A DNA stretch of 64,000 bases from a bacterium. Lineage in GTDB: Bacteria; SAR324; JACQKK01. Made by a program: the position numbers and the translations under genes. The DNA lies in NCBI GenBank assembly GCA_965240465.1, contig OZ251219.1:448001-512000 (forward strand). The letters run 5' to 3'. The notes beneath the pieces are model-generated. The model was given only the letters and a program-made list of their open reading frames with translations, did not search any database and was not told the origin of the DNA. Positions 3,375 through 63,568 of this stretch are shown piece by piece (positions within the stretch are counted from its first letter, which is position 1; each line of letters begins with the position of its first letter).

Positions 3375-3408
3375 TAAACCCCCCTCGGATTGACTTGCAC
3401 CAGTAACC

Positions 3409-31312: not shown

Positions 31313-32188
31313 ATGCTAGAAGCAAAATTAAAAAGCACCGTACCAACCAGTTCTCCCTTTGGTAATTTGATAGCTGGATTAGCTGGTTCTAACCAAGGAA
31401 TATCTATACTAGATACGGCAAGGTTTCAGTATCAAAAATCACCTTTAAGATATCCTGGTGGTAAAAGTAGGGCTGTAAAGGGTATTCTGTCCGTTTTTCC
31501 TGAAAATATAGAAAGAATGTGTTCTCCCTTTTTAGGAGGCGGCTCAATAGAGCTAGCTTGTTCTTCTTTAGGTATAAAGGTTTATGGTTATGATATATTC
31601 TCGCCACTTATTGATTTTTGGCAGGAGGTACTAAGTAATCCCGAAGAAATAGCAGAAAGAGCTCGGGAGTACTTACCATTATCTAGGTCCGAGTTTTACA
31701 ATTTACAAAAAGCCTATACTAGTTTTAAGGATAAAAAAGAAAGAGCCACTGTATTTTTTGTATTAAATCGTAGCTCTTTTTCAGGCACTACTTTATCAGG
31801 AGGCATGTCTCCTGGTCATAAGAGGTTTAATAATTCTGCCATTGAAAGGCTAGAAAAATTTAGGGATGATAATCTTAATGTGAGCTGTGAATCTTTCCGA
31901 GAAAGCTTATCCAGGCATGAAAATGATTTTTTATATCTTGATCCTCCTTATGCAAATGGGCAAGCTATTTACGGCGATAGAGGGGATACACATAAAGACT
32001 TTGACCATAATGGACTTGCCAATATCTTAAACAAAAGAGACCGATGGATACTATCCTACAATGATTGTAGTACGATCAGGGATTTGTATAAAGATTTCAA
32101 ATTTATCCAATTAGATTGGACCTATGGAATGAATAATAGCAAAAAATCTAATGAGGTATTAATCCTCAGCAAGGACTTAGCTATATGA
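31313..32188 (+). CDS. Dam/D12-class amino-methyltransferase of a type II R-M system
   Basis: KSPLRYPGGKS, PFLGGGS, YLDPPY, LSYND; AT-rich; overlaps the REase start (ATGA). Confidence 0.92.
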   Translation: MLEAKLKSTVPTSSPFGNLIAGLAGSNQGISILDTARFQYQKSPLRYPGGKSRAVKGILSVFPENIERMCSPFLGGGSIELACSSLGIKVYGYDIFSPLIDFWQEVLSNPEEIAERAREYLPLSRSEFYNLQKAYTSFKDKKERATVFFVLNRSSFSGTTLSGGMSPGHKRFNNSAIERLEKFRDDNLNVSCESFRESLSRHENDFLYLDPPYANGQAIYGDRGDTHKDFDHNGLANILNKRDRWILSYNDCSTIRDLYKDFKFIQLDWTYGMNNSKKSNEVLILSKDLAI

Positions 32189-33090
32189 GTCAGGTAAAAT
32201 CAGGCAAGGCTTTTGAATATGGAATGATATGGCAACTGGAAAATATTATTAAATGTAACATAGAAGAAAATAAATCGTTAAATGTTGCCAGATCTTGTTA
32301 TTTAGATTGCACAGAAGAAGAACAAAATAATATACTAAAAGCCTCGGACGAAATTCTAATGTTTTTACTTGCACACGATAGTAGGCTAAGTGGTGGAAGA
32401 TATAAGGCTTTATTGCAATCTGATATGAAAGGTAAATATGGGGATGTTCGGGATGTCATAATATATGATACCCAGAGAGGACATGAAATAGGATTATCTT
32501 TGAAAAATAGGCATACAGCGGTGAAACACTCAAGGTTATCTGAAAATATAGACTTTGGTAAAAAATGGTTGAATATTCCAAATACACAGGAATATAAAAA
32601 TAAAATTTCTCCTATCTTTAGAGATCTAAGGATAAGAAAAGATAAAAAGGAATTCTGGAGAAATATAAACGACAAGGAAGAACTGTTTTATCTACCTATA
32701 CTTTATGAATTTGTGGATGAAGTAAAAAGGCTTTACCAAATAAATAATAAGGCGGTATCTGAGGATTTGTTGAGATACTTACTTGGAAAATATGATTTCT
32801 ACAAGATAGTAAAAGAAAATGGATGTGTGTCTATACAGTCATTTAGCATTTTTGGATCATTAAAATGGGGTAAGAAAATCCCCCTACCAGAAAAGATAAT
32901 AGAAATTGCCTTAAAGGAAAAATCTCGCACTACTGTTGTTATAGTATTTGACAAAGGTTGGCAAATATCTTTTAGAATACATAATGCAAAAAGTAGGGTA
33001 GAACCTTCATTAAAATTTGATATACAGATAGTAGGATCTCCTTCTATTTCCAGACATGAAATAGAATATAAAATGGCTAAAACCGTGTAA
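32185..33090 (+). CDS. HaeIII-family type II restriction endonuclease
   Basis: GKAFEY, LQSD..G..GDVRD, IGLSLKNRHTAVKHSRLS, FRIHNA..RVEPSLKFDIQ. Confidence 0.85.
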   Translation: MSQVKSGKAFEYGMIWQLENIIKCNIEENKSLNVARSCYLDCTEEEQNNILKASDEILMFLLAHDSRLSGGRYKALLQSDMKGKYGDVRDVIIYDTQRGHEIGLSLKNRHTAVKHSRLSENIDFGKKWLNIPNTQEYKNKISPIFRDLRIRKDKKEFWRNINDKEELFYLPILYEFVDEVKRLYQINNKAVSEDLLRYLLGKYDFYKIVKENGCVSIQSFSIFGSLKWGKKIPLPEKIIEIALKEKSRTTVVIVFDKGWQISFRIHNAKSRVEPSLKFDIQIVGSPSISRHEIEYKMAKTV

Positions 33091-41563: not shown

Positions 41564-42487
41564 TTAATTTACTGCCAGCCTATCATAAGTAGGAGTCATT
41601 AAATTATTTATAAGGTTATGTTTCCTTTGTTTTGGTGAATTTTCAATCCTGTTCTTTGATAACTCTAAGTATTCTAATTCTGTATCATAACCTATACACT
41701 TTCGGTTATTTTGCACCGATACCAAAGCAGTCTGCCCACTACCTAAAAATGGATCCAGTATGGTATCTCCTTCTTGTGAGTATAACAATAATACCCGACG
41801 TACCAGTTCTTCTGGATATGGGCAAGGATGATTAATTGTTCGCGGCGGTACAGGAGCGATATGCCATATATTATTGGCAATATCTTTGGTGAATAATTCA
41901 TCAACTGCTATGGCTTCTTTTTTGCCTCTACGCATGGCTCCTTCTTTTCTAAATAGTAAAATGTACTCGGTCATTATGTTGGGATAGTAATACCCCATCC
42001 GTGGATTTTGTATGTAGCTGCCCGCTCTACGCACCCCGCCTGTCACCTTATTCCAGATGATATCTTGATGAAATTTCCAACCCGTCTTTACCATACGTTC
42101 TGTGATTGCCATAGGCGTTGCATAGTGTTTGCCTTTATAAAGTATGGTACCGACTACAATGGCACAAAATCCGCCTTCCATTGTCGTCCGTAGTACTTCT
42201 TGGAATGCTTTTTCAATCTTATCAAGATATTCCTCATAGCTATTTCCAAAGGAAGAGTATTTTCTTTCTCTATGCCATGCTTTGGTATCCTTGGCATGAA
42301 TGTCATAATCAATGGAATTCCAGTATGGCGGTGAGGTAATAGTTAGGGCTATTGACTGATCATGGCATTGATTCATTTCCAAACAAGACTGATTAAAAAA
42401 GGAATAGTTATCTCCTTTTACGCTGTTATTGTTTGCACTGTGGTTTGCACTGTTGTTTATACTGTTGTTTATACTGTTGTTGCTCAT
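41564..42487 (-). CDS. Orphan beta-class N4-C/N6-A DNA methyltransferase
   Basis: ITSPPYW precedes HPCPYP and DPFLGSG; N-terminal Asn/Ser stretch derived from a 12-bp repeat. Confidence 0.92.
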   Translation of the reverse strand: MSNNSINNSINNSANHSANNNSVKGDNYSFFNQSCLEMNQCHDQSIALTITSPPYWNSIDYDIHAKDTKAWHRERKYSSFGNSYEEYLDKIEKAFQEVLRTTMEGGFCAIVVGTILYKGKHYATPMAITERMVKTGWKFHQDIIWNKVTGGVRRAGSYIQNPRMGYYYPNIMTEYILLFRKEGAMRRGKKEAIAVDELFTKDIANNIWHIAPVPPRTINHPCPYPEELVRRVLLLYSQEGDTILDPFLGSGQTALVSVQNNRKCIGYDTELEYLELSKNRIENSPKQRKHNLINNLMTPTYDRLAVN

Positions 42488-45543: not shown

Positions 45544-46257
45544 TTAAGAGCTGGGCTTCCAGCGTAATCCTAGGGAGTAGAAATTCAGTTTTTTGCTTTG
45601 GAACATTAATTGGAATTCGGTGGGGGTTGGGCTAGCGGGAAAGCCATCGCGGGAGACATTATTGCTAAAGAAGTCCAGTTGCCAGTTTTGCCAATCTTGG
45701 GTGCGTTGCAGAGCGTGAAGGAAGCAGCTGGAGCTATCGGTTCTAAGTGCCAGCAGGGCATTGGGTTTACAAACCCATTCTAGGGATTTTTGTAGTTGTT
45801 GATTATCCAGCAGTCGTCGCGGGCGATGTTTGGCTTTAGGCCAGGGGTCGGGGAATTGTATAAGTACTAGGTCTACACTGCGAGGAGGAAGAAATTCTGC
45901 CAAGCGTAAGCCATCTGCATATAGCACCTGAACATTTTGCAGTTGGACACGGTGAAATTTGGTTTGGCTACGCAATAATCGCTTGAGACGCACTTCAAAA
46001 CCAACCAAGAGATCGTTTTGGTGAGCAGATGCTTCTGCTAACAAAAAACCTCCCGAGCCACTACCCAAGTCCACCACCAGACGCCCACACTCCTCCTGAT
46101 GTGCTACCTTCTTCGCTAGCTTTTCGCTCGCTAGCTTTTCGCTCGCTAGCTTTTCGCTCGCTAGCTTTTCGCTCGCTAGCCACTGACGAAACAGGGCTGG
46201 CGAGAAACGCAAATTTGCTACCTCAGCTAGCTTAAGGTTATTTTTACCATTTTTCAT
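45544..46257 (-). CDS. trmB: tRNA (guanine-N7)-methyltransferase TrmB
   Basis: DLGSGSG, GFEVR, FPDPWPKAKH..RRL, LRTD, TEF. Confidence 0.9.
   Translation of the reverse strand: MKNGKNNLKLAEVANLRFSPALFRQWLASEKLASEKLASEKLASEKLAKKVAHQEECGRLVVDLGSGSGGFLLAEASAHQNDLLVGFEVRLKRLLRSQTKFHRVQLQNVQVLYADGLRLAEFLPPRSVDLVLIQFPDPWPKAKHRPRRLLDNQQLQKSLEWVCKPNALLALRTDSSSCFLHALQRTQDWQNWQLDFFSNNVSRDGFPASPTPTEFQLMFQSKKLNFYSLGLRWKPSS
46113..46180. repeat. Perfect 15-bp repeat (tcgctagcttttcgc, 4.5 copies) encoding (LASEK)n in TrmB
   Basis: Direct reading. Confidence 0.95.
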
Positions 46258-46319: not shown

Positions 46320-47345
46320 TTAACCCAGCTTCTTTTTAGAACGCTTACTAGGCTTAGATTTAGTCAAAGCTTTAGCAATGGAGTCTACCATCGGTCGCTT
46401 AAACAAGGCGGGTTTCTTGCGATAGCCTTCATTTTCCCAAGTGACCGAGGGACTAACATGCCCTCCTACCGCTTCACTCATAACATAGACAGCCAAGAAC
46501 GCCTGCGGGTCGCATTCAAACAGTAGTTCTTTAATTTGTCCCAGCTGATGTAGATGAATAATGCAGTAAATCACCTTTAACTTTTTGTTTGAGAAAGCTC
46601 CTACTGCATCAAAGAAGGTAACTCCACGATGCATGTGCCTCATAATGGCTTGGGCTACCTCTTCGGGCTGATCAGTGATGATCTGTACTGCTCGCTTTTG
46701 TGAAAAACTAGTCAGCAATTTTTCAAACACGATCCCAAATACCCACATGTACAAGGCAGAGTACAGCAATATATCTAAATTGGCATAAAACAGGGCCCCC
46801 AATAGATTGAGCCCATTAACCACATTAAAAGTGGTGCTGGTAGGCATCGCAAATTTTTTCTTCATGTACATGGCCAGTATTCTTTGCCCCCCGCCTGAGC
46901 CTCCTGCTCGCACTACCACCCCGATTCCCACTCCTAAAATCACCCCTGCCATAATGCATTTGAGTACGTCATTTTCTGGCAATTCCAACGATATCCCCTT
47001 GGTAGCTTCTAGTAAGAAGCTCAGCATCAACATACCAATGAACGAAATAACTGTGTGACGCAGGTGATGCTCACGCCAACCCAATATAAAAACGGGAATG
47101 TTTATCACAAGATAAATCACCCCCAAGGGTACCCGATGATCAAAAACGTAATAAAGCAGAATGCTAGTCCCTGCTAATCCCGAAGGAACTAACCCAAACA
47201 CCAGCACCACTGCATTTACTCCGATGCTCATCAAGCTAAGCCCTATGAGGGTTATAAGCAACAGAATGTAAAAACGCTTAGTGCATAAATAAACCCGTAC
47301 TTCACTTAGCTCAAGGCGTATGCGTCCAACGAATTCGCTATTCAC
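46320..47345 (-). CDS. YitT family membrane protein (DUF2179 C-terminus)
   Basis: SGLAG, INIPVF, AGGSGGG, RGVT...GAFS, DPQAF. Confidence 0.88.
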   Translation of the reverse strand: MNSEFVGRIRLELSEVRVYLCTKRFYILLLITLIGLSLMSIGVNAVVLVFGLVPSGLAGTSILLYYVFDHRVPLGVIYLVINIPVFILGWREHHLRHTVISFIGMLMLSFLLEATKGISLELPENDVLKCIMAGVILGVGIGVVVRAGGSGGGQRILAMYMKKKFAMPTSTTFNVVNGLNLLGALFYANLDILLYSALYMWVFGIVFEKLLTSFSQKRAVQIITDQPEEVAQAIMRHMHRGVTFFDAVGAFSNKKLKVIYCIIHLHQLGQIKELLFECDPQAFLAVYVMSEAVGGHVSPSVTWENEGYRKKPALFKRPMVDSIAKALTKSKPSKRSKKKLG

Positions 47346-47653
47346 AATGTCTTCTCACGATGCCTTTTCACGATGCCCTCTCACAATGCCTTTTCACGAT
47401 GCCTTCTCACAATGCCTTTTCACGATGCCCTCTCACAATGCCCTTTCACAATGCCTTCTTACAATGCCTTTTCACGATGCCTTCTCACAATGCCTTTTCA
47501 CGATGCCTTCTCACAATGCCCTTTCACAATGCCTTTTCACGATGCCTTTTCACGATGCCTTTTCACGATGCCCTTTCACAATGCCTTTTCACGATGCCCT
47601 TTCACAATGCCTATTCACAATGCCCTCTCACAATGCCTTTTCACGATGCTTTT
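47342..47653. repeat. 13-bp minisatellite (tcacratgccYtY, about 24 copies) beginning at the yitT start codon
   Basis: Direct reading. Confidence 0.96.
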
Positions 47654-47786
47654 TCTTAATGTCCCGCTATGGAAATTAATTTAGAACGAGGTGTGATCCT
47701 ATTCACAACATTACTAACTTTCTTGCTAAAAAATGGCATAATAAAAGTCATTGGTGAATACAATCTTTTGGTGGTTATAACTTGCA

Positions 47787-49819: not shown

Positions 49820-50296
49820 CTATCCTTTGAAAAAATCATCAACAAACTCTCTGTCCTTGCATTTCTCCAACAATATCCAATTGTTTTTTGCTTTTGGTAT
49901 TTTATTCACCGATAGACTTCCCTGTCCTAGTTGCACAATATAGAGGGTGGGAATGAAATAAAAATTGATCCTTCTTTCCCCATTGTCACGTTCCGACTGC
50001 ACCCCGACAACTACGTCCGAAGTTTCAGTAGTTTGAGTATATTCCTTTACCCCAGATTTATACTCCCGATCTACACCGCCCCTCACCCCGCCCACAAACG
50101 ACACCGAACTGCCACTGACGGTTTTTACCTGAACTCTGATGATACAAGAATCTAATTCCACCACGATGTCATAAGTTGAATGAGGTAAATCAACCCGAGA
50201 AGCATTATAACCTCTTTCCAGTAGAGCAGCTAGCATTCTGCTTTCATTGGCGAATCCTTTTGCTGATGCTAGTTTGCCCTTATTTGTCTCTACCAT
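49820..50296 (-). CDS. Small PD-(D/E)xK endonuclease, probable restriction enzyme
   Basis: E..., YDIVVE...IRVQVKT; start overlaps the MTase stop. Confidence 0.8.
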   Translation of the reverse strand: MVETNKGKLASAKGFANESRMLAALLERGYNASRVDLPHSTYDIVVELDSCIIRVQVKTVSGSSVSFVGGVRGGVDREYKSGVKEYTQTTETSDVVVGVQSERDNGERRINFYFIPTLYIVQLGQGSLSVNKIPKAKNNWILLEKCKDREFVDDFFKG

Positions 50297-51579
50297 TTTT
50301 TAAGTACCAGTACATGATCTTCTTCTATGCGTTCCCTACGGGGAATTTTAATAAAGTGATTGATGATGCCCGACTCAAAACGGCACTCCACTTGATAACC
50401 AAGCTGAGGAGCAACATCTTTAAGATATCGCCAAGTTTCAAAAGGATGTCCCCTGATAATGTTACTGCCGATCACCATTACGTACCTTCCTCCTTTTTTT
50501 AAGACCCGATACACTTCCTGCATATTCAGCACCATGTCTTGAATAAATTTATAGGCAATATATCCTCGGCGAGGATCTGTTTGATAAATTGATTTAATAA
50601 CCGCATCGGCTGTTTTTATTCCAGTCTGGTGTAGGTGAACATAATCTTGGGCACTTACAATTTCTGTACCCACATGATTTACTTTTAAGTCCCTCAAAGA
50701 CCCATTAGCAAAACCCAGCCAATACATTTCAAGCTGGTGCGTTCTGGGATAATCAACTGCGTTCATGTAGGGCGGCGAAGTTAAGGCTAGTTCAAATGTT
50801 TCGTTTCCATAGATGTGCAGATCCGTGGCACTAGCATTGTTTGGTATTTCAACTGCGGCTAGTTTTGCGTTGCTAAATTCAAGCATGCCTTGAGTACTAC
50901 TTTTCAAACGCTTTTGGAAAAGGCTGATGGCATATCCAGCTTTAATCACTTTATTAAGCTTTTTGCGTACCACCGTGCGCGTACAGTTGTTATCGGCCTG
51001 AGAAGTTTGGCGGATAATGGAAGAAAAACAAATAAACAAAAAATTTCGCAGGGATGACGAACATTTCAATTTCACAATACCAGCCTTAATAAAGGCTAGT
51101 TCCCTTAAAACATGTGGCTTGAACCATCCATCCCGGTAAGGAAAATATGGCACCCCATTAATCAAACAGGATGAAGAAAAAGTATCCAAATAGGACCTTA
51201 TCCGTTCATTTGCCCTAAGGAGTTCATCCATATTTAGGGGGGTAGTTTTAACTAGGGACAGAAAGCGGGAAAACGGGTCTATATCCACTCCCACACTCCG
51301 ACGCCCCAACAGCATGGCTTCAAGGTTGGCGGTACCGCTCCCCATAAAGGGATCCAGCACTAAATCACCAGCCTTACTGTATCGCCTGATAATCCAACGC
51401 GGCAATTCAGGAAAAAATTTGGCGGGATATTTGTGAATCCCATGGGTATAAGCCCTTTGGTCATTGCTGATGAATAAAAATCGCTGCCCATCTCCAATGT
51501 TAAGGTCAATCGGGATATCCCCCTTAATACAGATTGGCACTGCCTTGCTGGTTTGAATGTGGTGAGATCTTGCTAACAT
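50290..51579 (-). CDS. Alpha-class amino (likely N4-cytosine) DNA methyltransferase
   Basis: THGIHKYPAKF, DPFMGSGT precedes LTSPPY. Confidence 0.92.
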   Translation of the reverse strand: MLARSHHIQTSKAVPICIKGDIPIDLNIGDGQRFLFISNDQRAYTHGIHKYPAKFFPELPRWIIRRYSKAGDLVLDPFMGSGTANLEAMLLGRRSVGVDIDPFSRFLSLVKTTPLNMDELLRANERIRSYLDTFSSSCLINGVPYFPYRDGWFKPHVLRELAFIKAGIVKLKCSSSLRNFLFICFSSIIRQTSQADNNCTRTVVRKKLNKVIKAGYAISLFQKRLKSSTQGMLEFSNAKLAAVEIPNNASATDLHIYGNETFELALTSPPYMNAVDYPRTHQLEMYWLGFANGSLRDLKVNHVGTEIVSAQDYVHLHQTGIKTADAVIKSIYQTDPRRGYIAYKFIQDMVLNMQEVYRVLKKGGRYVMVIGSNIIRGHPFETWRYLKDVAPQLGYQVECRFESGIINHFIKIPRRERIEEDHVLVLKKW

Positions 51580-51781: not shown

Positions 51782-52753
51782 GTGAGTATTGGTCGTAGGG
51801 AGTTATTGCGTTTATTGGGGGCGGGGGTTTCTGGAGCGGCTCTGTGGGGTGTGAATGCGAGGTTGGTAGAGGCGGTGATTGGTGGTGTTCGGCAGCCGAA
51901 GTTGGTGTGGTTGAGGGGTTTGGGTACGGATATATCGTTATTGAGTCAGTTGGGGATGCAGCATCCTAATTTTTTGGATTTGGTACGTTTGGAATGGGTT
52001 TTGGATGGAGGTGATGTTTTTTCGGGGGTTTCGGGGTCTTGGAGTTTTGATCGTCTTGGTGAGAGATTAATTTTGGTATTGGAGGGGGTTCCGAGTGAGT
52101 TGGATTTCAGGAGTGAGTTATGGAGCAATTTACTGTCGCGAGGTCAAGCGGCGATATTGTTAGGGACGGATGTTTGCTATGGTGGGGTTGGGGAGTCTTT
52201 AGGTAGTTTGCGTCTTTTGGAGAAGCAATTGGGGGATGCGGGGGTAGCGGTAGTGAAGTTACCTGGGGTACCTCCTCCGCCGCAGCATTTAACGGGTATT
52301 TTGGCATATATGCAGGAGGTTGGTTTTCCTCGTTTGGATGGTCATCAGCGTCCTTTGCTGTATTATGGTCGGACGGTGTGTGAGGATTGCGAACGCCAGG
52401 GGGATTTACAGCGGGGGCGATTTGCGAGTTATGGGGGAGATGAAGGTTGTTTATTGCGTTTGGGTTGTAAGGGTTTGGTTACTCATAATAGTTGTGCTCG
52501 TCAGCGTTGGAATGGTGGGGAGCAGTGGTGTGTGGGGGTTGGAGGAGCTTGTACGGGTTGTTCTGAGCCGAGTTTTCCTAATCATGGAGGTTTGGGTTTA
52601 AGCGGTGCGATTACTGCGGGTTTGGGAGGATCTCGGTGGTGGCGTAGTTTGGGTTGGAGTGGTTGGGGGTTGACGGGTTTGGCAGGTTTGGCTTGGGGGT
52701 TAGAGGGATTGCGGGGCTGGTTATTTTCCACCAAGGAAAAGGGATTGGATTAA
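51782..52753 (+). CDS. [NiFe]-hydrogenase small-subunit homolog (Tat-exported, C-terminal TM anchor) lacking proximal-cluster ligands
   Basis: GRRELL Tat-like motif; CEDC..GCLLRLGCKG..NSC..RWNGG..WC..GGACTGCSEPSFP; N-terminal CxxC absent; PGCPP replaced by PGVPP. Confidence 0.88.
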   Translation: MSIGRRELLRLLGAGVSGAALWGVNARLVEAVIGGVRQPKLVWLRGLGTDISLLSQLGMQHPNFLDLVRLEWVLDGGDVFSGVSGSWSFDRLGERLILVLEGVPSELDFRSELWSNLLSRGQAAILLGTDVCYGGVGESLGSLRLLEKQLGDAGVAVVKLPGVPPPPQHLTGILAYMQEVGFPRLDGHQRPLLYYGRTVCEDCERQGDLQRGRFASYGGDEGCLLRLGCKGLVTHNSCARQRWNGGEQWCVGVGGACTGCSEPSFPNHGGLGLSGAITAGLGGSRWWRSLGWSGWGLTGLAGLAWGLEGLRGWLFSTKEKGLD

Positions 52754-52763
52754 GGTTGGGCTG

Positions 52764-54224
52764 ATGGGATTTTCGGTAAAAAGTTGGTCTGAGAGAGTAC
52801 GAGTAGAGGGGGGGCTGAGCCTTCTTGAAGATGAGCGAGGGCTAATACGCTTAGGGGGGGGACGCTGGCGGAAGATAGAGCACCTATTACGCGGTCGTCC
52901 CCCATTGGAGGCCGTGCAGCTAACTCAGCAAATCAGCGGTGATAGCGGAGTATCCCATGCTTTGGCAGCCCTGCGTGCCTGCGAACAGGCAATGGAGATC
53001 AAGCCCTTAGAGCAAGGCTTGCTACTACGCGAGCTACTTTATGGATTGTCTCAGTTACATGGTCATGTGCGTCATTTTTACTTTCAGGTGTTGCCAGATT
53101 ACTTGCCTGCCCGAGCCCTAAAAAGCTACCGCGGCAAAAACATCGCCCTGCTTAAGGCAGCTAAACTATATACTTCGGCTGCGGGGCAAGATAAAAAATT
53201 CACCTCTGGTTTTAGCTACCTAGAACATCAAAAATTATTAGAGCATCAGTACGATTCTCTCAACGGACTTGCCAATCTGCAACGCATGCTAGCCGTGCTA
53301 GGAGGCAAATTCCCCATGGTGATGTCCCTAGCCCCAGGCGGTCTTACTACTAAAATTGATGACCATAGCTTGTTAAGAATCAAGCGGCTGTTCAACAACC
53401 TCCCCCCGCTGGTGGAAACTCAACTGACCCCAGATATTGCCCTCTTGCTAAATAAACATCCCCTCTTAAAAATCCAAGGACAAAGCCCAATCGCATTTCT
53501 TAGCCTCGGATCCGAAAACGCCACCGTAGAACTCAATGCCGATCCATTTGCAGCCGGGATCCTCACTAATTCCAAGCTCCAACCCCTACCACTAAACTTT
53601 ATAGAAGATATCTCCCACAGCTTCTATCGCCTCTCCCGACCAAAACATATCCTGAAACCCGATCCCCAAAAAACTACCGCCTATAGCTGGATCAAAGCAC
53701 CCCGAAATCAAAATCAACCCCTCCAAGTAGGACCCCTTGCCAGACTAGCCGTCTCTAATCTCACCAGCCACAACCTCCCGAGAGGTACTCTGCTTAACGA
53801 ATTTCAAACCCTCTTTCAAAAACCACCTCACCAAATCAATAATGTCGCCGCTAGGCTGCTCGCTTGCTCCATTGAATCCCGTATACTCCTTCAGCATATC
53901 CAAAATCTGATACTCCAAATTAAACCCAACCAAAAAACCTCCGTCTCCTATCTCCCCTCGCTTAAACATCAACAAGCCTGGGGACATGCCGAAGCCCCCG
54001 CAGGTAGCATCAGCCACCACCTAGTACTTAAAAATGGACGCATCCATCACTACAACATCATCGCCCCAAGCACTTGGAACGGCTCCCCCCTTGACGATAA
54101 AAAACTCGCTGGACCCCTAGAATCAGCCCTCAATCACCGCAATACCAGACCTGACCTCACTCCCCTCACCGCCAACCGCATTATCAATAGCTTCGGCTTC
54201 AGCTCCAGCGATGCCATCCACTAA
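52764..54224 (+). CDS. [NiFe]-hydrogenase large-subunit homolog lacking all four Ni-Fe cysteines
   Basis: RVEGG, IEHLLRGRPP, HVRHFYF, LGGKFP..PGG, YSWIKAPR, VGPLARL, EAPAGSISHH, YNIIAPSTWN; L1 reads QQISGDS and L2 reads SFGFSSSDAIH*. Confidence 0.88.
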   Translation: MGFSVKSWSERVRVEGGLSLLEDERGLIRLGGGRWRKIEHLLRGRPPLEAVQLTQQISGDSGVSHALAALRACEQAMEIKPLEQGLLLRELLYGLSQLHGHVRHFYFQVLPDYLPARALKSYRGKNIALLKAAKLYTSAAGQDKKFTSGFSYLEHQKLLEHQYDSLNGLANLQRMLAVLGGKFPMVMSLAPGGLTTKIDDHSLLRIKRLFNNLPPLVETQLTPDIALLLNKHPLLKIQGQSPIAFLSLGSENATVELNADPFAAGILTNSKLQPLPLNFIEDISHSFYRLSRPKHILKPDPQKTTAYSWIKAPRNQNQPLQVGPLARLAVSNLTSHNLPRGTLLNEFQTLFQKPPHQINNVAARLLACSIESRILLQHIQNLILQIKPNQKTSVSYLPSLKHQQAWGHAEAPAGSISHHLVLKNGRIHHYNIIAPSTWNGSPLDDKKLAGPLESALNHRNTRPDLTPLTANRIINSFGFSSSDAIH

Positions 54225-54248: not shown

Positions 54249-54731
54249 ATGAACCTCATCAACCGACAACTGCTCCTCCAAATAGCTCCCCTGCGTTGGA
54301 TACTAGGACGCAAAAATACCCTCGCCCGACCATATCCCCTATACCTAGCCCTAACTGCCACCATATTCTCAGCCGAAATCATCCGTCTGGCTCGCCATAC
54401 CCTAAACTACCATACGTACCAACTCACCCTCGCCTTCCACATCCTCAGCGGTTCTCTGTTGACCATCTTCTTCATCAAGCGTATGATCCAAACGGCATAT
54501 TCCATGTCTCACCAACTCCAAAAACCAAAACCCCTCCCCCTGACCTTTAACTTAGTACTCACTCTCCTGATCCTCACTGGACTCCTGCGTACCTTCCAAC
54601 TACGAACCAACCTCAGCTTACCCAGCTGGGTCGCTCCGCTCCACGGAGCTCTAGCACCTTATATCTGGCTTCTGGTGCTTCTATTATTCAAGCAATTTTG
54701 GAGCAAATCTAAGAAATCCCATCTAAAGTGA
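54249..54731 (+). CDS. Four-TM membrane protein, probable reduced cytochrome b (HyaC/FdnI-like) subunit
   Basis: Four hydrophobic helices; AFHILSG in TM2, LILTG in TM3, PLHGAL in TM4; third gene of the operon. Confidence 0.6.
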   Translation: MNLINRQLLLQIAPLRWILGRKNTLARPYPLYLALTATIFSAEIIRLARHTLNYHTYQLTLAFHILSGSLLTIFFIKRMIQTAYSMSHQLQKPKPLPLTFNLVLTLLILTGLLRTFQLRTNLSLPSWVAPLHGALAPYIWLLVLLLFKQFWSKSKKSHLK

Positions 54732-55023: not shown

Positions 55024-56826
55024 ATGGCTAATGAACGCAAGACTGAAAATATAGTTAGAAAACATTTCTATCAATTTTCAGATTCCATATCAATAGAAGA
55101 ACAAAGTTCTGATAACCCTAAAATTGATAAATTGCTTAGAAATGCGTCTAAAAAGGGGTTGGGTAAAGGTTATCCTGAATTTATTATTACTCATAATACT
55201 AATTCTGATTTACTAATTGTTATTGAATGTAAGGCAAATATTTTAAAGCATGAAAGTAATGATAAAGATAAATATTCTGAGTTTGCAGTTGATGGAGTTT
55301 TACTTTACGCTTCTTATTTGTCAAAAAGCTATGATGTGTTAGCTGTTGCAGTAAGTGGAGAAGAAGAATCATCATTAAGGATTTCTCATTTCCTACATCT
55401 AAAAAATGATAAAAAATCCACTAAAATTTTTGGAGGCAAACTGCTATCTGTTGATAATTATTTAAATGGATATTTGGAAAAACCAGAAAAAATAAATCAA
55501 GATTATAATACGCTTTTATACTTTACAAAAAAATTAAACAAAAAGTTACATGGTTATAAAATTCCTGAAGACAAAAGAAGCTTATTAATTAGTTCAATTT
55601 TAATCGCACTAGAAGCCAATAGTTTTAAAGAATCTTATTCTTCAGATAAGAGACCTAAAGATTTAGCTGGTAGACTTGTTCAAACTGCTACTAATGAATT
55701 AGAAAATGCTAATATCACAGGGAGGAAACTTCAATACATAAATACTGCATTTGGTTTTATAAAAGAAGATACTTCTTTATCTGAAACAGAAAATGTCTTA
55801 AAAGAAATTATTTATGACATTGATGAAAATATAAATAATTTTACCAAAAATAACAAATATACTGATGTTTTAGGACAATTCTATATTGAATTTTTAAGAT
55901 ACTCAAACAGTGATAAGGGTCTCGGGATCGTTTTAACCCCTCCACATATTACAGAATTTTTTGCAGATTTAGCACAAGTCGATAAAGATTCAATTGCTTA
56001 TGATAACTGTACAGGAACAGGCGGATTTTTAATTAGTGCTATGAAAAAAATGATTGAAGATGCAAAAGATGATGAAGAAAAAATCAAAGAAATAAAATTA
56101 AAACAACTTATTGGAACAGAATATCAACCACATATTTTTGCTTTGGCAGTTTCAAATATGTGTATCCACCAAGACGGAAAAACAAATATTACAAAGGGTA
56201 GTTGTTTTGATAAAAAAGTTATTGATGCAATAAAAAGTGAAAAGCCCACAGTCGGATTTTTAAATCCTCCTTATAAATCAAATAAAAAAGACGATACAGA
56301 CGAATTAAAATTTATTTTAAATAATTTAGATTGTTTAGTTCATGATGGAACCTGTGTTGCTATTGTGCCAATGCAAAGTGCCTTAGCGACCAGCGGTAAA
56401 GTTTTAGGATTTAAAAAGATGCTTCTTGAAAAACACACATTAGAAGCGGTTTTATCGATGCCTAATGAATTGTTTCATAATTCAAAGGTAAACGTTGTTT
56501 CTTGTGTTATGGTTTTTAGGGCCCATAAACCACATTTAGAAAACAAAAAAACATTTTTTGGTTATTTTAAAGATGATGGATTTGTTAAAACAAAAAATAG
56601 AGGTAGAGTAGATGCTGACAATAAATGGAAAGTAATAAGAGACAGATGGTTATCTGCTTACAGCAATAAAGAAAACATTACAGGTTTTAGCGTTATGCAA
56701 AAAGTAACATCACATGATGAATGGTGTGCTGAGGCTTATATGGAAACTGATTATTCAAATTTAACAGAAAAAGATTTCATTAATACAGTTAAAGAATATA
56801 TTGCTTTTAGGGTAAAGTATGGATAA
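55024..56826 (+). CDS. BcgI-like (type IIB/IIG) restriction-modification alpha subunit: endonuclease plus N6-A MTase
   Basis: GYPEFII...VIECKA nuclease; LGIVLTP, DNCTGTGGFL, FLNPPY; very AT-rich. Confidence 0.88.
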   Translation: MANERKTENIVRKHFYQFSDSISIEEQSSDNPKIDKLLRNASKKGLGKGYPEFIITHNTNSDLLIVIECKANILKHESNDKDKYSEFAVDGVLLYASYLSKSYDVLAVAVSGEEESSLRISHFLHLKNDKKSTKIFGGKLLSVDNYLNGYLEKPEKINQDYNTLLYFTKKLNKKLHGYKIPEDKRSLLISSILIALEANSFKESYSSDKRPKDLAGRLVQTATNELENANITGRKLQYINTAFGFIKEDTSLSETENVLKEIIYDIDENINNFTKNNKYTDVLGQFYIEFLRYSNSDKGLGIVLTPPHITEFFADLAQVDKDSIAYDNCTGTGGFLISAMKKMIEDAKDDEEKIKEIKLKQLIGTEYQPHIFALAVSNMCIHQDGKTNITKGSCFDKKVIDAIKSEKPTVGFLNPPYKSNKKDDTDELKFILNNLDCLVHDGTCVAIVPMQSALATSGKVLGFKKMLLEKHTLEAVLSMPNELFHNSKVNVVSCVMVFRAHKPHLENKKTFFGYFKDDGFVKTKNRGRVDADNKWKVIRDRWLSAYSNKENITGFSVMQKVTSHDEWCAEAYMETDYSNLTEKDFINTVKEYIAFRVKYG

Positions 56827-57799
56827 AAACATACCTATTAGAGAAATTTTTAGTATTCAATATGGTAATCAATTAGATTTAAACAAGCAAGTTGAGTGTA
56901 AATCTGGAATTAATTTTGTCAATCGTTCTAATAAAAATTTAGGCATATCTACCAAGATTAAAAAGATTGAGGGTATTGAGCCTTTTGAAAAAGGCTTGAT
57001 TACTGTTGCACTAGGTGGGAGCATATTGTCTGCTTTTGTGCAACCATGTCAGTTTTATACAGGACAAAATGTAAAAATTTTAAAACCAAGAGAACCAATA
57101 GATGAAAGTATTAAAATATTTTACTGTATGTGTATATCTCAAAATGCCTATAGATATAGTGCTTTCGGCAGAGAAGCAAATAAAACATTTGATAATTTAT
57201 TAGTCCCACATTCTGATGAATGTAAAAAAATAATTGCTAATTATTCAACACCTAAACAACCATCAGAAAAACCATGTTTAGAAAATAAAGGTCTTAGTCT
57301 ATGGGATAGAGAATGGAGATATTTTAATTTATGTGAATTATTTAATATAAGTGGGTCAAGGAGTTTTACAAAAAAAGAAATTCAAGAATATGGAATAGGG
57401 AATTACCCTTATGTAGTCACTTCGTCAGAAAATAATGGGACAGAAGGCTTTTATAATAAATGTACTGAAAAAGGGAATGTTCTTACTATAGATAGTGCTA
57501 CTGTAGGTAGTTGTTTTTACCAACCTATAGATTTCTCAGCTTCAGATCATGTAGAAAAATTGATACCTAAATTTAGTATGAATGTATTTATTGCACTATT
57601 TTTGCGAACGACTATAAATCTAGAAAGAATCAGATATGGATATGGGAGGAAATTTGCACAAATGAGGATAAAAAATACAAGGATCAAACTTCCAGTCAAA
57701 GAAAGAAAAAAAGAAGCTTACGACCCCGATTGGCAATTTATGGAAGATTATATAAAAGCATTACCTTACAGTAGCAATCTGCAAATTGATGAGTTTTGA
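56819..57799 (+). CDS. HsdS-like specificity (beta) subunit with two TRDs
   Basis: Two repeated halves (FYTGQNV..YSAFGREAN / FSASDHV..YGYGRK), IKLPV...PDWQFMEDYIK; overlaps the alpha-subunit stop. Confidence 0.85.
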   Translation: MDKNIPIREIFSIQYGNQLDLNKQVECKSGINFVNRSNKNLGISTKIKKIEGIEPFEKGLITVALGGSILSAFVQPCQFYTGQNVKILKPREPIDESIKIFYCMCISQNAYRYSAFGREANKTFDNLLVPHSDECKKIIANYSTPKQPSEKPCLENKGLSLWDREWRYFNLCELFNISGSRSFTKKEIQEYGIGNYPYVVTSSENNGTEGFYNKCTEKGNVLTIDSATVGSCFYQPIDFSASDHVEKLIPKFSMNVFIALFLRTTINLERIRYGYGRKFAQMRIKNTRIKLPVKERKKEAYDPDWQFMEDYIKALPYSSNLQIDEF

Positions 57800-57903: not shown

Positions 57904-58788
57904 TTATTGTTGCCAGATTCGTTTCCAGAAGGCGGAGATGGCTGGGCGGTGTTGTGTGGCTTGTTTGGGGTATTGCTGGTGGATATTATGGGCGATTTGT
58001 TGAATATGCAGGCTAGCGGCTGAATGAGGGAATAGTTTAAGTAGGGGTTGTCTATTACGTACTGCGGTAGGGATGGCGGTATCTTGGGGGATATGCCCTA
58101 GCAGGGGGAGAGGTATGTTGAGGAATTGGAAGCAGGCTTGTTGCATTTTTTGGTGTACGTGTTTAGTTTCTTGAGGAGAGCGGGATTGGTTGATGATGAG
58201 TGAGAATTGGGTTTTGTGATGTTGGAGTCGGAGGAGTTTAATAAGGGCATAGGCATCTGTAAAAGAAGTTGGTTCTGGTGTAGTCACCACGATGATTTGG
58301 TCGGCGGCGGCGTTGAATTGGAGTACCTGAGGAGAGATACCGGCGGCGGTATCTAGTATCCAGTCATCGGTGTTCCAGGGTATTTGGGCGAGGTTTTGGA
58401 GCAAGCGAGTTTGTCCTTCAGTTTCTAGTTGTACGAGTTGATTAATTCCTGAGGCTGAGGGCAGGATTTTAATACCACTGGGTCCATTGAGGGCAATATC
58501 TGCGAGGGACAATTTACCATTGAAGGTATCTTCTAGGGTATATTTTGGTTGTATTCCGAGCAGGATGGGTATATTGGCGAGTCCGATATCAAGATCTATC
58601 AGGGTGATTTGTCTTTTAAGTTTAGCTAGTGCGATTGCTAGATTAAGGGCGAGGTTGCTTTTACCGACTCCTCCTTTGCCGCTGGCGATGGAAATAACTC
58701 TTCCTTTTATGGCTGGGCTGGGTGCTAGCGATGCGTGAATACGCCTAAGACTGGTGGCTTGGTCTGCAGACATCAGGGATTGGTGCAT
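57904..58788 (-). CDS. flhG: Flagellar number regulator FlhG/FleN (MinD family)
   Basis: DQATSLR N-terminus, SGKGGVGKS, DLDIGLAN, DTAAGIS, TPEPTSFTDAYALIK; downstream of flhF. Confidence 0.92.
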   Translation of the reverse strand: MHQSLMSADQATSLRRIHASLAPSPAIKGRVISIASGKGGVGKSNLALNLAIALAKLKRQITLIDLDIGLANIPILLGIQPKYTLEDTFNGKLSLADIALNGPSGIKILPSASGINQLVQLETEGQTRLLQNLAQIPWNTDDWILDTAAGISPQVLQFNAAADQIIVVTTPEPTSFTDAYALIKLLRLQHHKTQFSLIINQSRSPQETKHVHQKMQQACFQFLNIPLPLLGHIPQDTAIPTAVRNRQPLLKLFPHSAASLHIQQIAHNIHQQYPKQATQHRPAISAFWKRIWQQ

Positions 58789-58873
58789 TTGATCAGAGGT
58801 GACGACAAGTTTTATGGATGATATTTATGCTTAGCATCCTCTAGTCCGCGTGGGGGTATTTTAGCGGTGTTTT

Positions 58874-59124
58874 TTGGCAGTGTCCTCTTGGCAGCGTTCT
58901 TTTGATGGTGTTCTCTCGGCAGTGTTCCCTCGGCAGTGTCCTCTTGGCAGTGTTTTTTTGATGGTGTTCTCTCAGCAGTGTTCTTTTGGCAGTGTTCTTT
59001 TGGCAGTGTTCTTTTGGCAGTGTCCTCTTGACAGCGTTATCTCGGCAGCGTTCTCTCAGCAGTGTCCTCTCGGCAGCGTTCTCTTGACAGCGTTCGCAGT
59101 GTCCTCTTGGCAGCGTTTTCTCGG
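58874..59124. repeat. 14-bp minisatellite (tggcagtgttcttt-like, about 18 copies) between flhF and flhG
   Basis: Direct reading. Confidence 0.93.
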
Positions 59125-59166: not shown

Positions 59167-60660
59167 TCAAGCTTCGCTGGAGATTTGAAGTAGTAAGTCA
59201 ATCAATCTTTCTGGGGTAGCTATTTCCATATCTTCGGGTACTCGCTGACCGGTGGTCAGGTAGTTAATGGGCAGTTTGAAACGAATAAAGTGATTAAACA
59301 GTGAGCCGCAATGCATACATTCATCCAATTTGGTGAACAAGACCGATTTTAGAGGCAGGCAACCAAATTTGCGGGTAGTATCAATGAGTTCGGCATCTTT
59401 GGTGGTAGCACTGAGTACCAGACAGATGTCCAGCTGGGGATTATTTTGGAACATTCCCTTTAGTTCTTTCATCTGGGGGAGATCACTTTGCGAGCGACCT
59501 GCGGTATCAACCAGTACCACATCGTAGCTTTGGAACTCTTCCAGAGCTCGGTGTAAATCAGTGCGATCTCTCACCACCGATAATGGCAGATTCATTATCT
59601 TGGCATAGGCTTTTAACTGCTCTAAGGCTCCTATCCTGAAGGTGTCCACCGTTATCAAAGCCGTCTTACGCTTATAGCGTAGCACTTGCTCGCTCGCTAG
59701 CTTAGCCACCGTGGTCGTTTTTCCCACCCCCGTACAACCCACCAACACCAACACCTTCTCACCCGATAAACCACCAGTGGTCTTCACTAAACTAGTTAAC
59801 ATCCGTGCCAAAAAAATCTTTACATAAGTGAAATCTTCTCGCTTTTCAGGCGGTAATCGTTTGGCAGCCTGCTCTACCAAACGCTTAGCAAATTTCTCCT
59901 CCAAACCATGAACCACCAAATGCTGCTGCAAACCCATTAAGGTCTCTGGTAAATCCAAACCCACCTTCAAACCCCCTCCCTGCAACGCTTGCACTGCCTG
60001 CCGCATATCTGTTAACTCATGGTGCAACTGACGCATTGCATGACCTCCCAGTCCCTCCTCCTCCTTCACCACTTTTAGCAACTGCTTCAACTGATGAACT
60101 TCACTACATAAACCTCGCAAAACCGAATCCCGCTCCGCCATGCCTGACCGAACAACTTGATCACTAACTTCTACCACCCTCGCTGACCCCCCTCCATCTC
60201 CCCTTCCTCCAAACGAAGTACCCCCACTTGACCCCTCCTGACCTGCCCCCTCCTGACCTGCCCCCTCCTGACCTGCCCCCTCCTGACCTGCCCCCTCCTG
60301 ACCTGACCCCTCGCCAGACGCTCCCCCACCTGCTCTCCCATTTGCTCCCTCGCCAGATGCTCCCCCACCTGCTCTCCCATTTGCCCCCTCAACCACTCCC
60401 TCCTTTTCCTTCGCCGCACTCCCCTCTGCCAATCCTACTGCCTCCCTCTCCATATCAAAACGACCAACCCCCCTCGACTCACCAACACCCCCTTCTTCAG
60501 GCCTCACCGCAGCTACCTCCCATAACTGACGCCTCAAAAACGGAATCCCCACTCTCCGCAACTGACGAGTAGATAAAATCAGGGCATCCCCACCCAAATC
60601 CTGACGGGTTTTTTGCAGGGCTTCCCGCATGTCAGCCCCTCGATAGTGCTTCACACCCAT
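59167..60660 (-). CDS. flhF: Flagellar SRP-family GTPase FlhF
   Basis: DLGGDALILST, GCTGVGKTTTVAKLA, DTFRIGA, DTAGRS, TKLDE, GQRVPED. Confidence 0.95.
   Translation of the reverse strand: MGVKHYRGADMREALQKTRQDLGGDALILSTRQLRRVGIPFLRRQLWEVAAVRPEEGGVGESRGVGRFDMEREAVGLAEGSAAKEKEGVVEGANGRAGGGASGEGANGRAGGGASGEGSGQEGAGQEGAGQEGAGQEGAGQEGSSGGTSFGGRGDGGGSARVVEVSDQVVRSGMAERDSVLRGLCSEVHQLKQLLKVVKEEEGLGGHAMRQLHHELTDMRQAVQALQGGGLKVGLDLPETLMGLQQHLVVHGLEEKFAKRLVEQAAKRLPPEKREDFTYVKIFLARMLTSLVKTTGGLSGEKVLVLVGCTGVGKTTTVAKLASEQVLRYKRKTALITVDTFRIGALEQLKAYAKIMNLPLSVVRDRTDLHRALEEFQSYDVVLVDTAGRSQSDLPQMKELKGMFQNNPQLDICLVLSATTKDAELIDTTRKFGCLPLKSVLFTKLDECMHCGSLFNHFIRFKLPINYLTTGQRVPEDMEIATPERLIDLLLQISSEA
60232..60390. 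repeat. 15-bp repeat (QEGAG, 5 copies) and 39-bp duplication (EGANGRAGGGASG, 2 copies) in the FlhF linker
   Basis: Direct reading. Confidence 0.92.
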
Positions 60661-60790: not shown

Positions 60791-61639
60791 TTAATTCCAT
60801 CGGGAAAAGATCGGTGGCTGGTCGTTGGATATCTTGCCGATTTGTTGTTCTTCCAGCCAAGGGGGAGCTAAATGGAGGGTGCTATGCTGGTGGTGGAAGG
60901 TCTTCGCCCGATGGAAGTGTCCGATGACGAAATGGGAGATATGAGCAGGTATCCACTCGGTGAAGGTTTGGATTTCTGACTGGGGAAAATTAGACTCGGA
61001 GGAAAAATTAGGGGAAACAATATATTTTTTCATTCTGTCGGTGATTGCCTTGGCCATCCATGCTGGAGTGCGATTAAAAATTGCTTGGACTAAGCGGGAA
61101 TTGCTCAGGTAACGGGTGATGAGATGAGGATGATCATGGTGCCTGATGAGGTCTCCATGGGTAAATCCGTAGGTAGTATTCTGCCAGCGGATGATCATCA
61201 TGCCAGTGGTGAGGGCTTCAAAGGGAAGCCAGAGAGTAGGCTGATTAGGCATGAGGTGGTCTCTATTACCACTTACACACCAGATTCGGACTCCCTGCCT
61301 TTTAAGTTGCCAAAGAGCCTTGATTACTTGGTGATTTTCTGGAGTCCAAAAGCGTGGATTGGCGATCCAAAGATGGAATAGATCTCCCAGTAGTAAAAGG
61401 GCATCGGGTTGTTTAAGTTGAGAGAGCATGCGGATGAAGGGCTGGATTGGTGCTTTGGGGCAGCCTAAGTGAGAGTCGGTGACTAAATATAAATTGCCCC
61501 GACCTTCTAGGAACAAGGCTTTATTGAGCATTTCTTGCCAGTTAGGTTGCCAAGGTAACCAGTTTGATAAAGGTCTGATGTTTATCAAGGGTGTTTTATC
61601 AGGAATGAATGGGAGATTAGGGTTGATATTGGTTATCAC
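60791..61639 (-). CDS. lpxH: UDP-2,3-diacylglucosamine diphosphatase (LpxH-like)
   Basis: TDSHL, LGDLFHLW, GNRD, HGD, GHFH. Confidence 0.8.
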   Translation of the reverse strand: MITNINPNLPFIPDKTPLINIRPLSNWLPWQPNWQEMLNKALFLEGRGNLYLVTDSHLGCPKAPIQPFIRMLSQLKQPDALLLLGDLFHLWIANPRFWTPENHQVIKALWQLKRQGVRIWCVSGNRDHLMPNQPTLWLPFEALTTGMMIIRWQNTTYGFTHGDLIRHHDHPHLITRYLSNSRLVQAIFNRTPAWMAKAITDRMKKYIVSPNFSSESNFPQSEIQTFTEWIPAHISHFVIGHFHRAKTFHHQHSTLHLAPPWLEEQQIGKISNDQPPIFSRWN

Positions 61640-61665: not shown

Positions 61666-61922
61666 AAATGGCATTGCTTACGACACTGCTTATGCGACAA
61701 ATGGCATTGCTTACGACACTGCTTATGCGACAAATGACATTGCTTACGACACTGCTTATGCGACAAATGGCACTGCTTACGACACTGCCTATGCGACAAA
61801 TGACATTGCTTACGACACTGCCTATGCGACAAATGACATTGCTTACGACACTGCCTATGCGACAAATGGCATTGCTTACGACACTGCCTATGCGATGACA
61901 TTGCTTATGGCACTGCTTATGC
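61666..61922. repeat. 33-bp tandem repeat (atggcattgcttacgacactgcytatgcgacaa, about 7 copies) built from 12+12+9 subunits
   Basis: Direct reading. Confidence 0.96.
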
Positions 61923-63459: not shown

Positions 63460-63568
63460 CGGGGGGCTAAAAAGCAGGTGACCAAAAGTCAGGGGCTAAA
63501 AAGCGGGTGACCAAAAAGCAGGTGACCAAAAAGCAGGGGACTAAAAAGCAGGGGGCTAAAAAGCAGGT
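63460..63568. repeat. 15-bp tandem repeat (ggkgrcyaaaaagca-like, about 7 copies)
   Basis: Direct reading; between the PBP gene and ddl. Confidence 0.9.

Follow-up and report, generated by a model that had tools for sequence, protein, structure and literature searches.

A three-gene operon of SAR324 bacteria, most likely derived from a group 1 [NiFe]-hydrogenase, that has lost its Ni-Fe ligands and is probably a repurposed redox module

The window analysed in this work is a stretch of 64,000 nucleotides from a bacterium of the SAR324 lineage (GenBank assembly GCA_965240465.1, contig OZ251219.1, positions 448,001 to 512,000 of the forward strand), and the coordinates below are positions within it. 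It carries a three-gene operon whose products are homologous to the small subunit, the large subunit and, as it appears, the cytochrome b of membrane-bound hydrogenases. In the original prediction, made from the sequence of the first gene, the small subunit was proposed to have lost its proximal Fe-S site, the one facing the Ni-Fe site, while its medial and distal sites were converted to all-Cys ligation. The features of the operon are as follows.

51782..52753, + strand: small-subunit homologue, the gene under study; 323 amino acids, GTG start, first gene of the three-gene operon
51782..51874, + strand: N-terminus resembling a twin-arginine translocation (Tat) signal, residues 1-31 (MSIGRRELLRLLG...), from the sequence, with RR motif
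51890..52351, + strand: N-terminal flavodoxin-like domain, about residues 37-190, from alignments; AlphaFold predicted local distance difference test (pLDDT) 80-93 over residues 90-160
52175-52177, + strand: codon of Cys132, two residues past the canonical proximal Cys position
52379..52468, + strand: putative distal-cluster ligand set C200 (canonically His), C203, C223, C229, from HMMER alignments and family conservation
52493..52561, + strand: putative medial-cluster ligand set C238, C250 (Pro in D. gigas-type enzymes), C257, C260, from HMMER alignments and family conservation
52637..52723, + strand: C-terminal hydrophobic helix, residues 286-314; a helix in the AlphaFold model and a family-conserved segment rich in Gly, Leu and Trp
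52764..54224, + strand: large-subunit homologue (PF00374), 486 amino acids, starting 10 bases after the small-subunit open reading frame (ORF)
54249..54731, + strand: four-helix membrane protein, 160 amino acids, probably a divergent hydrogenase-type cytochrome b, 24 bases after the large-subunit ORF
54438-54440 and 54642-54644, + strand: codons of H64 and H132, the invariant His residues of the third protein, from the alignment of positional homologues

The small-subunit homologue was detected by Pfam through its C-terminal Fe-S domain (PF14720, 75.3 bits; cut-off 27); the same scan gave no match to the N-terminal domain PF01058 at E ≤ 0.01. With the NCBIfam full-length models, the small subunit scored 103.6 bits against TIGR00391 (hydA, cut-off 179.5) and the large subunit 227 bits against the equivalog NF033181 (cut-off 600). 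Since these scores lie far under the cut-offs, the operon proteins are homologues and not ordinary members of the families. In public records these proteins carry the names 'nickel-dependent hydrogenase' or 'hypothetical protein'. Solved small subunits were matched by HMMER, the best being 3myr_A (E 1.8e-29), with 1frv_A at 1e-24. The fold of the small subunit is retained in the model, for which the top Foldseek match was 1cc1_S (E 3.1e-9). The N-terminus reads IGRRELLRLLGAGVSGAAL, a twin-arginine motif followed by a hydrophobic stretch, as in substrates of the Tat pathway. Of the 32 small subunits of the family, 27 have the RR motif, and the other five resemble N-terminally shortened gene calls. 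Judged from the model, the helix at residues 286-314 is likely to be a membrane anchor.

Nine Cys residues are present in the small subunit (132, 200, 203, 223, 229, 238, 250, 257 and 260), and C132 is the only one ahead of residue 200. Alignment to a genuine small subunit (P0033), whose canonical proximal motifs ECTGC, GSCASWGG and PGCP served as the reference, places T49, S52, D130 and V163 at the proximal ligand positions. None of these is Cys. In HMMER alignments with solved structures, C200 falls on the His of the distal HxxC motif, and C203, C223 and C229 fall on the three distal Cys. The standard distal set is numbered His184, Cys187, Cys212 and Cys218 in Desulfovibrio fructosovorans (PMC5297734). 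C238, C257 and C260 align in the same way with the three medial Cys, and C250 with the Pro of 'nwP'. In the D. gigas and D. fructosovorans enzymes these three Cys are the medial ligands, and Pro occupies the fourth position. The strings from which the original prediction had been drawn (WLRGLGTDIS, GTDVCYGG, PGVPP, TVCEDC, EGC..LGC, NSC, QWC and GACTGC) all occur in the translation of 51782-52753, and the proximal loss that it described is borne out, with C132 displaced by two residues from the ligand position. The ligand pattern suggests that the small subunit would bind two [4Fe-4S] clusters.

The large-subunit homologue matches PF00374 (NiFeSe_Hases) at 207 bits against a gathering cut-off of 25.8, a Pfam result that speaks for homology only. 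It aligns over its full length with the large subunits of [NiFeSe] and [NiFe] enzymes, the best match by sequence being 4kl8_L (8.1e-39). A functional large subunit was defined by two Ni-Fe-binding CxxC motifs, RxCGxCxxxH (L1) and DPCxxCxxH (L5), and the homologue has neither of them. In place of QRICGVCPTAH of the [NiFeSe]/[NiFe] enzymes it reads QQISGDSGVSH, and in place of DPCLGCAVH it reads FSSSDAIH. The Ni-Fe Cys positions are occupied by S58 and S61 (52926-52958 region) and by S480 and D483 (54192-54221 region). The sequence EAPRG of genuine enzymes is EAPAG here, with A413 replacing the Arg. Compared with enzymes of the 4kl8_L type, the protein has thus lost every one of the four Ni-Fe Cys as well as the conserved Arg. 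It terminates exactly at H486, the residue behind which maturation proteases usually cleave, and has no C-terminal extension. The Ni-Fe Cys are absent from all 35 large subunits in the family alignment, in which F479, S480, D483 and A484 are invariant. E15, the Glu of the N-terminal RxEG motif, and E39 are invariant as well, and a C-terminal His or Gln is kept. E39 is spaced from the L1 motif like the Glu of the structural metal site in the standard enzymes.

The third protein appears to be a divergent member of the hydrogenase cytochrome b group. A word-based homologue search with it recovered only the protein itself. Positional homologues downstream of the large subunit were collected from 15 loci, and four columns are invariant among them (M1, H64, G111 and H132). 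A profile built from these 15 sequences recovered 116 representatives, all of about 160-220 amino acids. PF01292 (Ni_hydr_CYTB) was detected at E ≤ 1 in 19 of the 30 family members scanned, three of them above the cut-off (30.1 bits), and the weakest matches of the profile are bona fide PF01292 proteins (73-91 bits). The AlphaFold model is a four-helix bundle (pLDDT 83.4). The top match among 48,161 PDB chains was 4gd3_A, the cytochrome b of Escherichia coli Hyd-1 (Z 12.1, root-mean-square deviation 3.4, 135 residues), with CybB (5oc0_A) at rank 2 (Z 11.4) and FdnI (1kqg_C) at rank 9. H64 corresponds to the His of the second transmembrane helix (TM2) and H132 to the first TM4 His of PF01292 proteins, and the pair is kept in 26 of 26 aligned sequences. 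Genuine PF01292 proteins have two further His, one in TM1 and a second one in TM4, neither of which occurs in any of the 15 loci, so that one haem site is predicted and not two. When the model is oriented by the positive-inside rule, the two retained His come to lie in the periplasmic half of the bilayer, where they would form the haem site adjoining the small subunit. The membrane-facing end of the chain, said in the original prediction to have been kept, is represented by this gene.

The ligand changes were followed across related loci. The locus set consisted of the 80 best genome loci from contigs of one genome per species, 19 with a large subunit lacking the Ni-Fe Cys (called ligand-less here) and 61 genuine. 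The ligand-less loci comprise 14 of clade A, to which the window belongs, and five of the more distant clade B. The family alignments hold 32 small subunits, 42-69% identical, and 35 large subunits. The eight C-terminal Cys are invariant in all 32 small subunits, which have neither the CxxC nor the PGCP Cys. The proximal ligands are absent and the distal position 200 is Cys in 19 of 19 ligand-less loci, as in the window. Proximal Cys together with distal His were found in 55 of 55 genuine loci with a small subunit; on the other six genuine loci no small-subunit ORF was found. Position 250 is Cys in all 19 ligand-less loci and also in 54 of the 55 genuine ones. Seven further genuine hydrogenases from the same phylum keep the genuine pattern, three of them with Pro at position 250. 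The conversion to all-Cys ligation proposed in the original prediction stands for the distal site (19/19 ligand-less against 0/55 genuine) but not for the medial site. As 54 of the 55 nearest genuine relatives carry it, the all-Cys medial state is ancestral and goes back to a [NiFeSe]-like enzyme. The change from His to Cys at the distal position is specific to the clade without the active site and is tied to the loss of catalysis. Each of the eight Cys corresponds to one medial or distal ligand, and orthologues conserve them, so that the refutation named in the original prediction did not come about. The proposal that the cluster facing the missing Ni-Fe site was dropped with the outer wire kept agrees with this ligand pattern; the two [4Fe-4S] clusters themselves are inferred from the ligands. 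What had been observed in the sequence is confirmed and its interpretation is partly supported.

A second Cys of the N-terminal domain ('LCK/LCR', in the column of window residue 150) is present besides the GTDACYGG Cys in 30 of the 32 clade A small subunits. The window protein and its nearest relative do not have it, and clade B has neither of the two N-domain Cys. A thiol pair near the former proximal site is thus possible in most of clade A.

In two maximum-likelihood trees, 20 ligand-less large subunits fall on one side of a branch with a Shimodaira-Hasegawa-like approximate likelihood ratio support (SH-aLRT) of 100. The first tree was made from 79 rows, leaving out the incomplete rows L032 and L050, and the second from 53 hand-chosen rows. 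The trees are consistent with a single origin of the ligand-less clade and fall short of proving it, since long branches were flagged in them. An origin inside the phylum was considered and rejected, the phylum's own genuine hydrogenases not being sister to the ligand-less clade in the tree. Clades A and B are sister clades. The idea that they are paralogues was likewise dropped; none of 10 genomes tested carries both, and they therefore behave as orthologues in two lineages. The distribution was surveyed by a profile search of 88 genomes of the phylum.

Family f1 (the window's family, window genome included), clade A: 19/19 genomes, 511-763 bits
Family f7, clade B: 16/19 genomes, 280-337 bits
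Family f2, no ligand-less operon: 3/45 genomes matching, all genuine hydrogenases, 242-255 bits

The ORFs are intact and without stops in all matches of this survey. In the family alignments, 51 columns of the small subunit and 41 of the large subunit are invariant. Comparison of the window with locus L003 of its genus-mate gave ratios of nonsynonymous to synonymous substitution rates (dN/dS) of 0.13 (small subunit) and 0.21 (cytochrome b), at a dS close to saturation; in the large subunit dS is saturated and no dN/dS value results. The operon is kept in two reduced genomes of family f1, of 1.6-1.7 Mb. Its presence in every f1 genome, these two included, supports the retained function for which the original prediction had argued. 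In some genuine hydrogenases of the phylum (L102-L104 and L088, from family f2 and one f7 genome), the gene for the large subunit precedes that for the small subunit, opposite to the usual arrangement.

The host genome is a single contig of 1,599,138 bases with a marker-gene completeness of 83.6%. HypD, HypC and a HycI-type endopeptidase were not found in it; HypA, HypB, HypE and HypF were not searched for. No second PF00374 locus or other hydrogenase was found in the host genome. Among the f1 genomes, HypD is present in five of 19, and in the one genome checked (G013, also listed as G008) it shares a contig with a genuine hydrogenase. TatC is encoded in the host genome (220.5 bits), as are ferrochelatase and a haem-copper oxidase (COX1). 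No RNA dataset containing the operon is listed; it is listed in two DNA runs of one study. A promoter and terminator scan gave nothing beyond shuffled expectation.

The loss of the catalytic ligands, the missing HypC, HypD and HycI and the reduction of the host genome to 1.6 Mb would all suit a decaying, functionless relic. The intact ORFs, the presence in 19/19 f1 and 16/19 f7 genomes, the 51 and 41 invariant columns and the dN/dS values of 0.13-0.21 speak against decay, as does retention of the operon by two reduced genomes that lost flagellar genes. The chance that the operon is such a relic seems to us almost negligible. A complex that is still a hydrogenase, or another metal enzyme in which Ser, Asp and His residues hold a different metal centre at the old site, could account for the invariant E15 and E39, for the C-terminal His or Gln and for the acidic residue kept at position 483 in both clades. 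Such an enzyme would have to work with no Cys at the site, with Ala in place of the Arg, with no Hyp machinery found and with no proximal cluster for the exit of electrons, and we consider it very improbable.

Taken from the alignments, the most likely descent of the operon is from a membrane-bound group 1, [NiFeSe]-like [NiFe]-hydrogenase, and the complex would no longer handle H2. We read the operon as encoding a redox module that has been repurposed and is no longer a hydrogenase, and assign this reading a probability of roughly 0.6. For any specific substrate our confidence is far lower than that. In the mechanism envisaged, the small-large heterodimer would be exported by the Tat pathway, the large subunit hitch-hiking on the signal of the small subunit, and would be anchored through the C-terminal helix of the small subunit, seated on the mono-haem cytochrome b. 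The complex would bind two all-Cys [4Fe-4S] clusters and one haem b. The medial cluster, the distal cluster and the periplasmic haem would form a short chain of three centres that exchanges electrons with the quinone pool or with a periplasmic partner. Replacement of the distal His suggests that rapid exchange with a soluble acceptor is not under selection any more, while the fixed partner haem is still there. At the former proximal site of the small subunit, D/E130 and H169 (and, in clade A alone, C132) are candidate new sites, as is a conserved Ser/Asp pocket where the Ni-Fe centre of the large subunit used to be.

Several points weigh against this reading. Binding of the clusters and of the haem is predicted from ligand patterns alone. 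One ligand-less locus, L008, has Ser at the position of C238. With the proximal cluster lost, the medial cluster has no obvious redox neighbour, so the chain resembles a dead end with no nameable substrate. The Fe-S domain (residues 197-288) has an AlphaFold pLDDT below 50 in the small subunit modelled alone. For the third protein, the Z score of 12.1 lies in the range under about 13 where, according to the fold-search tool, matches of helical bundles can be generic; Foldseek against the PDB gave nothing at E ≤ 0.001, and in Pfam the window's own protein has no PF01292 hit. The absences of genes are not absolute in a genome that is 83.6% complete by markers. A complex prediction for residues 190-323 of the small subunit with the third protein scored 0.01 and is no evidence either way.

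The dead-end appearance of the chain could also be explained if the heterodimer is a non-redox periplasmic scaffold or sensor, for example through its Ser/Asp pocket, with the clusters kept solely for folding of the C-terminal domain. Loss of the Ni-Fe site, the proximal cluster and the haem ligands of the cytoplasmic side deprives the chain of its ends; F479, S480, D483 and A484 are invariant in 35/35 clade A proteins and an acidic residue is found at position 483 in all 19 ligand-less loci. Against a scaffold stand a cytochrome b His pair that is invariant in 15/15 loci, and in 26/26 sequences when genuine PF01292 proteins are added, eight invariant Cys and a distal ligand change that is fixed and not drifting. 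These features argue for selection on cofactor chemistry and not merely on the fold, and a scaffold or sensor role appears unlikely to us. Within the repurposed redox module that we prefer, a fuller proposal can be made. It holds that a [NiFe]-hydrogenase has here, for a second time and independently, become a respiratory module that is not a hydrogenase, starting from the periplasmic group 1 and relying on the end of the wire opposite to that of complex I; that one periplasmic haem makes up a quinone-linked electron hub together with the medial and the all-Cys distal clusters; that a new reaction or docking site has evolved at D/E130, H169, C132 (clade A), S58, S480 and D483; and that the complex is a lineage-defining part of core energy metabolism in two SAR324 families. 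We put this forward tentatively, with the odds somewhat against it as a whole.

The genes flanking the operon in the window are listed below; those of the first two lines lie outside the system and were assigned by Pfam.

49820..51579, − strand: PD-(D/E)XK nuclease-like gene and DNA methylase, upstream flank
55024..57799, + strand: N6 DNA methylase and specificity subunit, downstream flank
57904-58788, − strand: flhG/MinD-like gene (ParA/MinD families)
59167-60660, − strand: flhF (TIGR03499, 205.2 bits against a cut-off of 174.15)

The fraction of G+C is 0.286 in 55024-56826 against 0.50 in the operon, and because of this low value (28.6%) the downstream methylase pair is probably a foreign insertion. 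The flhF and flhG/MinD-like genes appear to be remnants of the flagellar neighbourhood seen in relatives. Within flanks of up to 8 kb, eight of the 14 clade A loci carry core flagellar genes (fliR-flhB-flhA-flhF), as do four of the five clade B loci (fliF, fliH, fliI); none of the 61 genuine hydrogenase loci does. At the clade B locus L017, which was read gene by gene, flgC-fliE-fliF-fliH-fliI and a metallophosphoesterase gene precede the operon, co-directional and with gaps of a few bases, and coaE and a gene for a VanY-type carboxypeptidase lie downstream of it. A calcineurin-like metallophosphoesterase gene stands directly upstream of the ligand-less small subunit in four of the five clade B loci (L017 6089-7024; L045 5983-6924; L020 4677-5648; L057 5969-6946). 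The LpxH-like gene of the window (60791-61639), considered as its counterpart, proved to be unrelated. A fourth conserved gene was also sought in the ORF cluster 'c11' upstream of clade A operons; no Pfam family matches it, and in DNA rich in GC it is probably spurious.

This gene order, together with the flhF and flhG that the window retains beside the operon, would fit a complex that is an accessory part or a regulator of the flagellar apparatus. The distribution of the two does not follow this expectation. FlhA, FliF and flagellin were not found in the host genome, nor was FlhA in the genome of its genus-mate (genus g1), and both keep the operon. Conversely, FlhA is present in 40 of 45 genomes of family f2, none of which has the ligand-less operon. 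The gene order may moreover be inherited within one phylum, whose genomes are kin and not independent samples. As the operon and FlhA occur separately in both directions, the link is best regarded as a gene order passed down by descent, with a regulatory association as the most that might be added, and a flagellar role for the complex is quite improbable.

Other features of the window were recorded in passing. The N-terminal region of FlhF contains Gly-rich tandem repeats with units of 15 and 39 bases (60232-60390). Four loci of restriction-modification systems or DNA methylases lie within the 64 kb: 31313-33090 (a Dam-like methylase and a HaeIII-type endonuclease), 41564-42487 (an N4/N6 methylase), 49820-51579 and 55024-57799. 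Short tandem repeats are dense in and between genes (46113-46180, 47341-47655, 58867-59117, 61666-61922 and 63462-63568), and none lies within the hydrogenase-like operon. A 13-base unit repeated 24 times generates overlapping repeat ORFs at 47320-47684; further arrays have 14/28-base units, at 58867-59117, and one 33-base unit repeated 7.9 times. Three consecutive genes for Sel1-repeat proteins (970-4206, + strand) lie beside a SocA/Panacea antitoxin-like gene (295-756). Sel1 repeats are frequent in host-associated bacteria, and these genes are therefore consistent with the reduced 1.6 Mb genome.

The locus matters in that a group 1 operon, predicted to be exported by Tat and lacking the active site, is present in every sampled genome of one bacterial family. 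The pattern of loss is clean: the ligands point to a Ni-Fe site, a proximal cluster and an inner haem that are gone, and to medial and distal clusters and an outer haem that are kept. The exchange of the distal His for Cys coincides exactly with the loss of catalysis. The operon can thus be regarded as a natural experiment on what the outer wire of a hydrogenase does alone and on why the distal His matters. Because public records annotate the genes as 'nickel-dependent hydrogenase', the H2-oxidising potential of SAR324 and Lambdaproteobacteria genomes could be overestimated.

Among known systems, the operon has the gene order (small subunit, large subunit, cytochrome b) of the group 1 uptake hydrogenases with cytochrome b, such as E. 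coli Hyd-1 (HyaABC, 4gd3), the enzyme of A. vinosum (3myr) and the membrane-bound hydrogenase (MBH) of R. eutropha (3rgw). It also shares with them the Tat RR signal, the C-terminal anchor helix, three matching folds and the spacing of the distal and medial ligands. Unlike these enzymes it has no Ni-Fe Cys, active-site Arg, C-terminal extension or proximal ligands; it has Cys for the distal His and one His pair in the cytochrome b instead of two, and no HypC, HypD or HycI was found in the genome. The third protein shares with the PF01292 family (HyaC, CybB 5oc0, FdnI 1kqg_C) the four-helix fold, the TM2 His and the first TM4 His. It differs in having one predicted haem site against two, in its short length (160 amino acids) and in falling below Pfam detection.

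The [NiFeSe] hydrogenases (Desulfomicrobium baculatum, 1cc1/4kl8; D. vulgaris Hildenborough, 2wpn) gave the best matches, by sequence for the large subunit and by fold for the small-subunit model. As in the window small subunit, their fourth medial position is Cys, and in these enzymes this gives a medial [4Fe-4S] cluster. Unlike the operon they retain the active site (selenocysteine/Cys), the proximal cluster and the distal His, and most of them are soluble periplasmic enzymes.

The same ligand swaps as in the natural protein have been engineered, in the distal His184Cys variant of D. fructosovorans and in medial Pro-to-Cys variants such as P242C of R. eutropha MBH (7odg/7odh). In work on the former, the exposed distal His of uptake hydrogenases is described as promoting intermolecular electron transfer, and the all-Cys distal mutant as still binding a [Fe4S4](Cys)4 cluster, with slower outward electron transfer (PMC5297734). 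The engineered variants are laboratory mutants of active enzymes, whereas the changes in the window protein are natural, fixed in a clade and coupled to lost catalysis.

A precedent for a [NiFe]-hydrogenase core kept for another job without its Ni-Fe site is provided by Ehr, Mbx and complex I (NuoD/NuoB). To our knowledge, hydrogenase-derived complexes without the Ni-Fe site have so far been known from group 4, as complex I, Mbx and Ehr. In the full-text literature outside subscription journals and supplements, no description of group 1-type homologues lacking the Ni-Fe ligands was found. Complex I retains the proximal-equivalent cluster N2 beside the former Ni-Fe site, which is now the quinone site. 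The Ehr complexes have no typical CxxC motifs and their function is described as unknown (PMC10284858). The three-gene operon has no antiporter-like genes and does not resemble a NuoD/NuoB-type module, its best matches being group 1 and [NiFeSe] enzymes. Ehr, Mbx and complex I come from the cytoplasm-facing group 4, whereas the window operon, by its alignments and its Tat signal, would belong to group 1 and act in the periplasm. The group 4 derivatives keep the proximal-type cluster, and the complex encoded in the window would keep the opposite end of the wire.

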